From: Escherichia coli
GTDB lineage: Bacteria; Pseudomonadota; Gammaproteobacteria; Enterobacterales; Enterobacteriaceae
Strand: one strand, 5' to 3'
DNA: 26,384 nucleotides
Assembly (NCBI RefSeq): GCF_003334765.1
Contig: NZ_QOWT01000044.1
Part shown: in pieces, positions 14,567-16,577 of the stretch
How the letters are laid out: each line of letters begins with the position of its first letter
Position numbering within the stretch: the first letter of the stretch is position 1
The notes under the pieces: model-generated
Seen by the model: only the letters and a program-made list of their open reading frames with translations
What the model was told of the DNA's origin: nothing
The model's database searches: none
Program-made: the position numbers and the translations under genes

Positions 14567-15448
14567 TTATCCAGCCACAAAACTCTCTTCAACACACTGA
14601 ATAAAAGTGTGCATCGCCGGGCTAACCGCTTTTCCAGCATGATGTGCGCACATGGCCGTAATGGTCTGCGACTGTTCGCCAAAAGGCAATTCAATTAATT
14701 CTCCGCACTCCAACTCTTTTGCCACCGCAAAGCGCGGTAGGTAGCTGACCCCGATATTCGCCGCGACACAACGCTTGATGCTTTCGATACTTATAAGCTC
14801 AATGGTGTTTTCCACCGTGATCCGCCGCTGACGCAGCGTGCTCTCAAATATCTGCCGGAAGACACATTGCGGTTCGTTGATAATAAAGCTACAGGCGTTA
14901 TGTCTTCCCGGCTCAGTAAAATCGACATCTGCAATTTGCGGTGAAGCCACCAGCACCAGTGATTGTTCACCCAACTCTCGTCGATTCAGAGCATCATCAT
15001 TCCCTACACGATAAAAGACGCCAACATCGGCCTCATCATTCAGTAGCGCATCACGGATCACGTAACAGTTCAGCGACTGCAACGATAAACGCACTTTTGG
15101 GGCGCGTTGCCGAAAACGCTGTAACACCTGCGGCATTCGGTAAGAGAGCAACGTTTCGCCCGAAACAACGCGTAGTTCCCCGTCCGGATCTGACTCCTTT
15201 TTGGCAGCCTCACGAAGCGTATCCATCACTCGGGTAAGTTCATAAATGTGCGGCAGCAACTTTTTTCCTTCGCGGGTAAGGCACATCCGTCGGCCAATTT
15301 TCTCAAATAACTGGACTGAAAACTCCTGCTCAAGCTGCTGAATATGAAAAGTCACCGTCGATTGTGTACAGCACAATTTTTGCGAAGCTCGCAAAAAGGA
15401 ACCCTCTTCCACCACGGTTTTAAGCGTAATAAAACGGCGCAGATCCAT
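14567..15448 (-). CDS. yfiE: LysR-family transcriptional regulator YfiE (uncharacterised)
   Basis: Track ORF trimmed to the canonical LysR start MDLRRFITLKTVVEEGSFLRASQKL... (293 aa); divergent from eamB. Confidence 0.88.
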   Translation of the reverse strand: MDLRRFITLKTVVEEGSFLRASQKLCCTQSTVTFHIQQLEQEFSVQLFEKIGRRMCLTREGKKLLPHIYELTRVMDTLREAAKKESDPDGELRVVSGETLLSYRMPQVLQRFRQRAPKVRLSLQSLNCYVIRDALLNDEADVGVFYRVGNDDALNRRELGEQSLVLVASPQIADVDFTEPGRHNACSFIINEPQCVFRQIFESTLRQRRITVENTIELISIESIKRCVAANIGVSYLPRFAVAKELECGELIELPFGEQSQTITAMCAHHAGKAVSPAMHTFIQCVEESFVAG

Positions 15449-15550
15449 AACCCCAAACCTATCGAAAATATCGAATCTAGAATATAAAAACATTCATTTT
15501 TTTAAATGTTCCGTGTCGGGTACTGTCTACCAAAACAGAGGAGATAACAA

Positions 15551-16138
15551 GTGACACCGACCCTTTTAAGTGCTTTTTGGACTTACACCCTGATTACCGC
15601 TATGACGCCAGGACCGAACAATATTCTCGCCCTTAGCTCTGCTACGTCGCATGGATTTCGTCAAAGTACCCGCGTGCTGGCAGGGATGAGTCTGGGATTT
15701 TTGATTGTGATGTTACTGTGTGCGGGCATTTCATTTTCACTGGCAGTGATTGACCCGGCAGCGGTACACCTTTTGAGTTGGGCGGGGGCGGCATATATTG
15801 TCTGGCTGGCGTGGAAAATCGCCACCAGCCCAACAAAGGAAGACGGACTTCAGGCAAAACCAATCAGCTTTTGGGCCAGCTTTGCTTTGCAGTTTGTGAA
15901 CGTCAAAATCATTTTGTACGGTGTTACGGCACTGTCGACGTTTGTTCTGCCGCAAACACAGGCGTTAAGCTGGGTAGTTGGCGTCAGCGTTTTGCTGGCG
16001 ATGATTGGGACGTTTGGCAATGTGTGCTGGGCGCTGGCGGGGCATCTGTTTCAGCGATTGTTTCGCCAGTATGGTCGCCAGTTAAATATCGTGCTTGCCC
16101 TGTTGCTGGTCTATTGCGCGGTACGCATTTTCTATTAA
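15551..16138 (+). CDS. eamB: Cysteine/O-acetylserine exporter (LysE/RhtB family)
   Basis: 195-aa ORF with GTG start, MTPTLLSAFWTYTLITAMTPGPNN..., multi-pass membrane protein. Confidence 0.92.
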   Translation: MTPTLLSAFWTYTLITAMTPGPNNILALSSATSHGFRQSTRVLAGMSLGFLIVMLLCAGISFSLAVIDPAAVHLLSWAGAAYIVWLAWKIATSPTKEDGLQAKPISFWASFALQFVNVKIILYGVTALSTFVLPQTQALSWVVGVSVLLAMIGTFGNVCWALAGHLFQRLFRQYGRQLNIVLALLLVYCAVRIFY

Positions 16139-16140
16139 CG

Positions 16141-16175
16141 AAAAAAAGCGGAAGAGGTCGCCCTCTTCCGCTTAG
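16141..16175 (-). terminator. Intrinsic terminator of grcA, shared with the convergent eamB
   Basis: GCGGAAGAGG (16148-16157) / CCTCTTCCGC (16162-16171) perfect stem with 4-nt loop, flanked by an A7 run that gives the T-tract on the minus strand. Confidence 0.75.
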
Positions 16176-16193
16176 TAACTTGCTACTTAAGCC

Positions 16194-16577
16194 TTACAGG
16201 CTTTCAGTAAAGGTACGAGCGATAACGTCGCGCTGCTGTTCCGGAGTCAGAGAGTTAAAGCGAACTGCATAACCGGATACACGGATGGTCAGCTGCGGAT
16301 ATTTTTCCGGATGCTTAACTGCATCTTCCAGAGTTTCGCGACGCAGAACGTTAACGTTCAGGTGTTGACCACCTTCAACGCGAACTTCTGGTTTCACTTC
16401 TACTGGAACTTCACGGTATTCAATGTCACCCAGTTTGCTTACTGCAACCACTTCATCTTCTGCATAACCTGCTTTTGCAACGATGCAACGCGCTTCGCCT
16501 TTTTCGCTGTCCAGCAGCCAGAAAGAGTTCAGCAGATCGTCGTTAGCGGCTTTAGTAATCTGGATACCTGTAATCAT
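16194..16577 (-). CDS. grcA: Autonomous glycyl radical cofactor (YfiD)
   Basis: Track ORF trimmed to [22 protein letters not shown]... (127 aa) with the C-terminal glycyl-radical motif RVSGYAV. Confidence 0.94.

Follow-up and report, generated by a model that had tools for sequence, protein, structure and literature searches.

Conserved elements between yfiE and eamB resemble a LysR-type control region and point to regulation of the EamB exporter by YfiE

Results

The yfiE-eamB locus

The gene pair considered here lies within a 26,384-nucleotide stretch of Escherichia coli DNA (contig NZ_QOWT01000044.1), which we refer to throughout as the window. Positions 14400-16300 of the window are 100% identical to many E. 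coli chromosomes, where the annotation reads yfiE, eamB and grcA, and a window coordinate is obtained from an NC_000913.3 coordinate by subtracting 2699872. On the minus strand, yfiE occupies 14567-15448 and, by its open reading frame and annotated start (ATG, complement of 15446-15448), encodes a LysR-type transcriptional regulator of 293 amino acids. On the plus strand, the eamB (yfiK) reading frame runs from a GTG start at 15551 to 16138 and encodes a 195-residue exporter of the LysE/RhtB superfamily. The genes diverge from a common control region of 102 bp (15449-15550), as the initial annotation of this DNA had described. That annotation had also singled out two repeats in the spacer, and both lie exactly where it placed them: an inverted repeat AACATT-N10-AATGTT with arms at 15489-15494 and 15505-15510, hereafter the dyad, and a tandem repeat ATCGAA-AAT-ATCGAA with copies at 15461-15466 and 15470-15475.

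The open reading frame list also holds a version of yfiE that starts at an ATG at 15493 and is 15 codons longer. We rejected this start, as the extension shows no coding conservation across relatives and contains indels whose lengths are not multiples of three. The added codons (15449-15493) would overlie the operator boxes described below, and the annotated start differs from this one. On the other side of the gene, between srmB and yfiE, positions 14411-14510 hold a REP element pair (BIME) composed of GCCTGATGCGCTACGCTTATCAGGCCTAC and GTAGGCCGGATAAGGCGTTCACGCCGCATCCGGCA, and it is because of this pair that a query spanning 14400-16300 matches about 40 places in each E. coli genome.

YfiE has the full LysR architecture and is a LysR-type regulator, with an HTH_1 domain (PF00126) at residues 3-62 (E = 7e-17) and a LysR_substrate domain (PF03466) at residues 87-289 (E = 2e-45). 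It reaches none of the curated NCBIfam cut-offs. Against the ArgP/LysG subfamily model NF002964 it scores 61.3 bits where the cut-off is 197, and against the CysB family model NF009327 it scores 73.8 bits where the cut-off is 402, with residues 1-145 alone being matched; YfiE thus falls outside both groups. EamB scores 411 bits against the NCBIfam equivalog NF007653, well above the cut-off of 193, and is a member of that family; its match to Pfam LysE (PF01810) spans residues 14-194. Overproduction of EamB is described in a review as causing O-acetylserine and cysteine to be exported (Franke et al. 2003, via PMC10821248), and the same review gives the yfiK deletion as being without phenotype.

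Conservation of the gene pair and its spacer

In a single sequence, the two repeats carry little information. When the 102-bp spacer was shuffled with its dinucleotides preserved, an inverted repeat with 6-bp arms and a spacer of at most 20 arose in 40% of shuffles, a direct repeat of a 6-mer with a spacer of at most 10 arose in 24%, and both types arose together in 10%. We therefore rejected the significance of the dyad and the tandem repeat as judged from one sequence, and because shuffles reproduce such motifs so often, we relied on comparative evidence instead.

One genome per species was scanned, giving 43 loci with YfiE relatives and 39 orthologous spacers for comparison, with 22-23 genus-level orthologous spacers entering the footprint alignment. 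A divergent eamB stands beside yfiE at 37 loci, which is every locus where both genes are intact, and the spacer between them is 102-113 bp long. These loci cover Escherichia, Citrobacter, Klebsiella, Kluyvera, Cedecea, Yersinia, Serratia, Rahnella, Providencia, Aeromonas and Vibrio; among the YfiE relatives in this one-genome-per-species scan there was no locus from Pantoea. The srmB, grcA and ung flanks are limited to Escherichia, Citrobacter, Cedecea and two further Enterobacteriaceae. Because the pair is kept while the genes around it change, yfiE, eamB and their spacer move together, and we regard them as a mobile, conserved two-gene cassette across Enterobacterales, Aeromonas and Vibrio.

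Conservation of the spacer itself is uneven. From the ATCGAA repeat to past the predicted eamB transcription start, ending just before the Shine-Dalgarno sequence, the spacers align with no gaps, and all variation in length is confined to the stretch between the yfiE ATG and the ATCGAA repeat. Four blocks contain the invariant positions: T15462 to A15474 in a T-N11-A arrangement, AAAACATT, a run of T residues, and a TAnnnT hexamer. As a neutral baseline we took fourfold-degenerate third positions in invariant yfiE and eamB codons, where the mean majority fraction is 0.45 and 0/22 sites reach 0.9.

Predicted operator and promoter elements

The tandem repeat (15461-15475) is the first of these blocks, and since TCGA is self-complementary, it is also a palindrome, TCGA-N5-TCGA. 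It contains a T-N11-A LysR box at 15462-15474, which we predict to be a high-affinity recognition site. Across the 22-23 genus-level sequences, A15461, T15462, C15463, A15465, A15467, T15471, A15474 and A15475 are invariant or at least 90% conserved, with T15462, C15463, T15471 and A15474 being invariant. The outer pair of the box is T/A in 22/22 sequences, and the inner pair, 15465 and 15471, is A/T in 21/22. A position weight matrix built on the LysR box gives 23.5 bits at this site versus 14.1 bits at the next best site in the window.

The second block, the AAAACATTC box (15487-15495), is the most conserved of the spacer and contains the left arm of the dyad; at -46 to -38 of the predicted eamB start, it would be a contact within the activation site. 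A15490, A15492, T15493 and T15494 are invariant, and the remaining positions are at least 90% conserved, C15491 being the sole varying base (AAAA-ATTC). A matrix spanning 15486-15503 gives 30.8 bits here versus 11.6 for the next best match in the window. Immediately downstream, the T-run (15497-15503) occupies the position of a -35 hexamer. Its bases from 15498 to 15503 are invariant or at least 90% conserved (T15498 and T15500-15502 invariant, T15503 at least 90%), and the region of the T-run holds no TTGACA-like -35 element. A scan of 15380-15620 for consensus sigma-70 promoters returned no matches.

A predicted eamB -10 element, TACTGT, lies on the plus strand at 15521-15526. It fits the pattern TAnnnT, with T15521, A15522 and T15526 invariant, and is preceded by G15519 (-14), which is at least 90% conserved. 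This combination of TAnnnT and a conserved G two positions upstream is characteristic of sigma-70 -10 elements, and from it we infer that eamB transcription starts near 15533, giving an 18-nt leader. The predicted -10 element keeps a fixed spacing to the LysR box, to the Shine-Dalgarno sequence and to the start codon. The Shine-Dalgarno sequence, GGAG at 15540-15543 on the plus strand, is 7 nt before the GTG and at least 90% conserved, as is GGAGA over 15540-15544. For yfiE, a candidate -10 element on the minus strand, TATTCT at 15479-15484, is moderately conserved (60-70% at the key A and T) and was missed by the consensus promoter scan; it would tentatively place the yfiE start near 15472, within the LysR box.

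In the textbook layout of a LysR target, as in those of BenM/CatM, CbnR and OxyR, a T-N11-A recognition site lies near -65 and an activation site near -35. The centre of the LysR box, 15468, is at -65 of the predicted eamB start, so that, given this start, the spacer combines the divergent arrangement and the T-N11-A position that define a LysR control region. The centres of the LysR box and of the second site are 31.5 bp apart, equal to three helical turns. With the predicted start, this layout matches that of a textbook activator-dependent LysR target.

A LexA-box-like sequence, TACTGT-N8-ACAG, covers 15521-15538 and so overlies both the -10 element and the start predicted for eamB. Escherichia and Citrobacter alone keep this sequence, which is probably a coincidence.

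Variation in the dyad

The dyad, which spans -44 to -23 relative to the predicted eamB start, can be extended as AACAT-N11-AATGTTCC to cover 15489-15512 (-44 to -21), and it overlaps the predicted eamB -35 region. Its symmetry is even (T-N10-A or T-N12-A), versus the canonical T-N11-A. The left arm is near-invariant, and full pairing, 6/6, is found only in Escherichia/Citrobacter and in Serratia/Rahnella/Symbiopectobacterium. In the latter clade the dyad is larger, taking the form AAACATTC-N8-GAATGTTT with 8-9/9 positions paired. Outside these two clades, 1-5/6 positions pair, and the right arm is not conserved in Klebsiella, Kluyvera, Yersinia, Aeromonas and Vibrio. One lineage has a variant of the dyad with AATATT.

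Two of the paired positions change jointly (C15491T with G15508A) in three sequences, and 12/22 sequences are unpaired there. This covariation is not significant, with 148/500 shuffles scoring as high. A profile of dyad symmetry along the alignment was set aside as uninformative for the AACATT dyad, since it is dominated by complementarity between the A-run and the T-run. Among 50 loci, the exact dyad pattern is found only in yfiE-eamB spacers. The weight that the initial annotation gave to the two repeats thus shifts: the dyad proves to be clade-limited, though its motif recurs at dhaK-dhaR, and the tandem repeat gains importance as a deeply conserved T-N11-A LysR box.

YfiE occupancy in vivo and the dhaK-dhaR site

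Prior work has found YfiE at this locus. Using tagged YfiE in cells grown in M9 glucose, Gao et al. (2021, NAR; PMC8464067, Table 2 and supplementary text) obtained four ChIP-exo sites, described one of them as a 'divergent binding peak between yfiE and eamB', and put forward YfiE as the regulator of the cysteine/O-acetylserine exporter. The paper reports no YfiE motif, no effect on eamB expression and no ligand, and in its table the yfiE-eamB site carries no flag for RNA polymerase binding in M9 glucose (PMC8464067). The published peak, with a signal-to-noise ratio of 12.5, is at 2713323-2713356 of NC_000913.2, the reference named in the Methods of that paper (PMC8464067), and converts to 15429-15462 of the window.

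This conversion is accurate to about +/-2 bp. It assumes a shift of +1978 from NC_000913.2 to NC_000913.3, which we take from differences between the two versions and checked against two other sites, yffQ and dhaR, which agree with it. The converted peak covers the yfiE start codon and the first 14 bp of the spacer and ends on T15462, the first base of the LysR box. Its centre falls on the yfiE start codon; the LysR-box centre lies about 22 bp, and the dyad centre about 54 bp, to the right of it. The YfiE peak therefore adjoins the conserved boxes and pinpoints neither the LysR box nor the dyad. We rejected a reading of the peak coordinates as NC_000913.3, under which the peak would fall inside srmB, and the Methods and the other YfiE sites correspond to NC_000913.2.

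The supplementary tables of Gao et al. (2021) seem to mix coordinate systems, with the YfiE list following NC_000913.2 and the YeaM/NimR list following NC_000913.3. Reuse of these tables needs the numbering to be checked regulator by regulator.

A second YfiE peak, between dhaK and dhaR, offers a point of comparison for the dyad. AACAT-N11-AATGTTCC adjoins this peak with all 13 specified bases and the spacing identical to those at 15489-15512; no such match appeared in 200 shuffles, and 0 are expected by chance. The dhaK-dhaR spacer (NC_000913.3 1250954-1250991) also contains a 19-bp perfect palindrome, ATGTTTCA-TAG-TGAAACAT, which is centred on the YfiE peak and runs into AACAT-N11-AATGTTCC, so that the site has three AACAT-type half-sites in total. 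This palindrome could serve as an operator for YfiE, or it could coincide in part with a DhaR site; our literature search found no description of a DhaR operator. The recurrence of the motif, which does not depend on conservation, is the strongest evidence in favor of the dyad and suggests YfiE half-sites of the RRAACATT type. The two-box matrices gave no good matches in scans of the other three YfiE peaks, and it took the gapped form of the dyad motif to find the dhaK-dhaR match. Nothing similar is present in the yffQ and tnaB-mdtL peaks.

Expression data also connect YfiE with dhaK. In a 2025 preprint (10.64898/2025.12.20.695731), over 300 genes change under CRISPRi against yfiE, and dhaK, dhaL and gldA go up; eamB is absent from its text and supplement. 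Because the dyad motif recurs at the dhaK-dhaR peak and yfiE CRISPRi alters dhaK and dhaL, we tie the motif to YfiE. In our literature search, Gao et al. (2021) was the one paper found to link yfiE with eamB/yfiK, and the search turned up no data on eamB expression as a function of YfiE. The initial annotation had stated that YfiE has neither an assigned regulon nor an assigned ligand; the four ChIP-exo sites and the CRISPRi data have overtaken the first half of this statement.

Discussion

The yfiE-eamB pair is a real and otherwise ordinary LysR-exporter module, and it has already been proposed in print. The initial annotation regarded the pair as a plausible, unrecognised sensor-exporter module. 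Its central thought, a regulator acting on an exporter through the shared spacer, has become very probable given the retention of the pair, the conserved LysR box and -10 element, and the ChIP-exo occupancy. The word 'unrecognised' does not survive, since Gao et al. (2021; PMC8464067) had made the link. We are confident that YfiE directly controls eamB through the spacer in one way or another.

How this control might work can be set out in more detail, and we lean somewhat towards the following mechanism as a whole. A YfiE tetramer would bind two sites in a classical LysR-type divergent control region. The first would be the high-affinity recognition site, the T-N11-A box at 15462-15474 near -65 of the eamB start, and the second an activation site that begins at the AAAACATTC box and, in Escherichia, would extend as the dyad to AATGTTCC, from -46 to -21. 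The probable yfiE start falls within the recognition site, so that YfiE would be expected to repress its own gene. The eamB promoter is likely to depend on a regulator because it has a conserved -10 element and only a T-run at -35. On binding of an inducer, YfiE would be repositioned on the activation site and RNA polymerase would be recruited, leading to production of EamB. EamB would then export the accumulating compound, and the pair would act as a safety valve. Under this mechanism the inducer would most likely be the compound that EamB exports, be it cysteine, O-acetylserine or a derivative; that it is cysteine or O-acetylserine themselves is possible, and we hold it with considerable doubt.

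The strongest competitor to activation is that YfiE mainly represses eamB, with the dyad at -44 to -23 serving as an operator that blocks RNA polymerase until an inducer releases it, in a logic akin to that of TetR. The dyad does overlap the predicted eamB promoter at its -35 and spacer region, the site was not flagged for RNA polymerase in M9 glucose though YfiE was present (PMC8464067), and knock-down of yfiE raises dhaK and dhaL at dhaK-dhaR, where the same motif is found. The absence of an RNA polymerase flag and the rise in dhaK speak against a simple activator model, and they fit a repressor and a poised activator equally well. Against repression stand a promoter that has no -35 match and an invariant T-N11-A at -65 with fixed phasing, which in the LysR family is the layout of an activated target. 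The right arm of the dyad, moreover, is gone in many genera that keep everything else. We consider repression a minority reading, to be taken seriously and rather unlikely to prevail.

It is less likely that the dyad is incidental, being AT-rich promoter sequence in a -35 and UP-like region that two divergent promoters share back to back, with YfiE reading the ATCGAA/T-N11-A box and the AAAACATTC box and nothing else. The frequency of 6-bp-arm dyads in shuffles (40%), the degenerate right arm outside two clades, the lack of significant covariation, and a symmetry profile ruled by trivial complementarity between A-run and T-run would all be expected if this were so. Such a view has difficulty with the 13 identical bases at equal spacing beside an independent YfiE peak at dhaK-dhaR, where 0 are expected, and with the stronger dyad of Serratia/Rahnella (8-9/9). 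We therefore think it improbable that the dyad plays no part in YfiE binding.

A role for the dyad in RNA, as a leader attenuator or weak terminator hairpin on the yfiE-sense strand in place of a protein site, is very improbable. The minus strand of 15484-15515 can form a 10-bp hairpin (-6.3 kcal/mol, z = -3.5) that is followed by a U-run. The stem is AU-rich, a terminator scan of 15380-15620 gave no matches, and an Rfam search of 15350-15650 gave none at E <= 1, on which grounds we rejected assignment to intrinsic terminators or known structured RNAs. The 5' arm of the hairpin is not conserved across genera, and the plus strand folds no better than shuffles do. The hairpin would also go untranscribed, because the probable yfiE promoter lies downstream of it.

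Least probable of all is that SdiA or a global factor mainly controls eamB here and YfiE occupancy has no regulatory effect: ChIP occupancy by itself is no proof of regulation and deletion of sdiA lowered eamB mRNA 2.4-fold in one avian pathogenic strain, but that effect is small, no SdiA site has been shown, and the strict co-inheritance of yfiE, eamB and the operator across changing contexts would be puzzling if YfiE had no action here.

The activator mechanism that we favor has precedents among other regulator-exporter pairs. In Corynebacterium glutamicum, the LysR regulator LysG is encoded divergently from the basic amino-acid exporter LysE, a member of the LysE family, and the pair acts as a substrate-induced safety valve. 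YfiE-EamB parallels it in layout, with a LysR-type regulator transcribed away from a LysE-superfamily exporter across a short common control region. It differs in that YfiE falls outside the ArgP/LysG subfamily and in that EamB, an RhtB-type protein, has been connected with cysteine and O-acetylserine rather than with basic amino acids; induction by the exported substrate is a proposal in the case of YfiE. ArgP-ArgO of E. coli is similar in that a LysR regulator controls a LysE-family exporter and responds to the exported amino acid, and differs in the subfamily of its regulator and in that the effectors of ArgP are known. To our knowledge, argP is not adjacent to argO.

With regard to cysteine, a close parallel is CefR-CefA of Pantoea ananatis, an adjacent regulator and cysteine efflux pump for which induction by L-cysteine was shown experimentally and a safety valve was proposed, according to PMC9231021 and PMC5423876 (Takumi & Nonaka 2016). 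Going by these descriptions, YfiE-EamB resembles it as an adjacent regulator-exporter pair for cysteine.

Measured against LysR operators in general, the spacer has the expected invariant T-N11-A at the predicted -65, a second site over the -35 region, fixed phasing, divergent promoters and probable autorepression. It departs from them in the even symmetry of the dyad that forms its second site, whose arm centres are 16 bp apart, and in that the two sites have no obvious half-site sequence in common. The nearest comparison is Gao et al. (2021; PMC8464067), which concerns the same regulator and the same spacer and makes the same proposal, that YfiE controls eamB.

The central idea, binding of YfiE in this spacer and its probable control of eamB, thus dates in print from 2021. 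What we add is modest: an operator model at the level of single bases, the conservation of the cassette, and a candidate YfiE motif common to this spacer and dhaK-dhaR. EamB is used in engineering cysteine-producing strains, and the YfiE operator together with its inducer, if known, would provide a native biosensor for the cysteine pathway and account for the times at which E. coli lets this valve open.

The motif shared with dhaK-dhaR invites a more speculative reading of the signal, which we think improbable. It is conceivable that YfiE senses a reactive carbonyl-thiol metabolite, such as an adduct formed by cysteine with dihydroxyacetone, methylglyoxal or pyruvate, and that through AACAT-N11-AATGTTCC it couples export by EamB with repression of dhaKLM, the operon for dihydroxyacetone kinase. 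The physiological substrate of EamB would then be such an adduct and not free cysteine or O-acetylserine.

Elsewhere in the window, a second exact copy of AACATT-N10-AATGTT (7356-7377), followed by CA (7356-7379), lies between rseC and lepA, some 105 bp upstream of where lepA translation begins; the expectation for 26 kb is about 0.002 exact copies. The published YfiE ChIP-exo sites do not include it. If YfiE did respond to a carbonyl-thiol metabolite, this copy upstream of lepA might extend the YfiE regulon.
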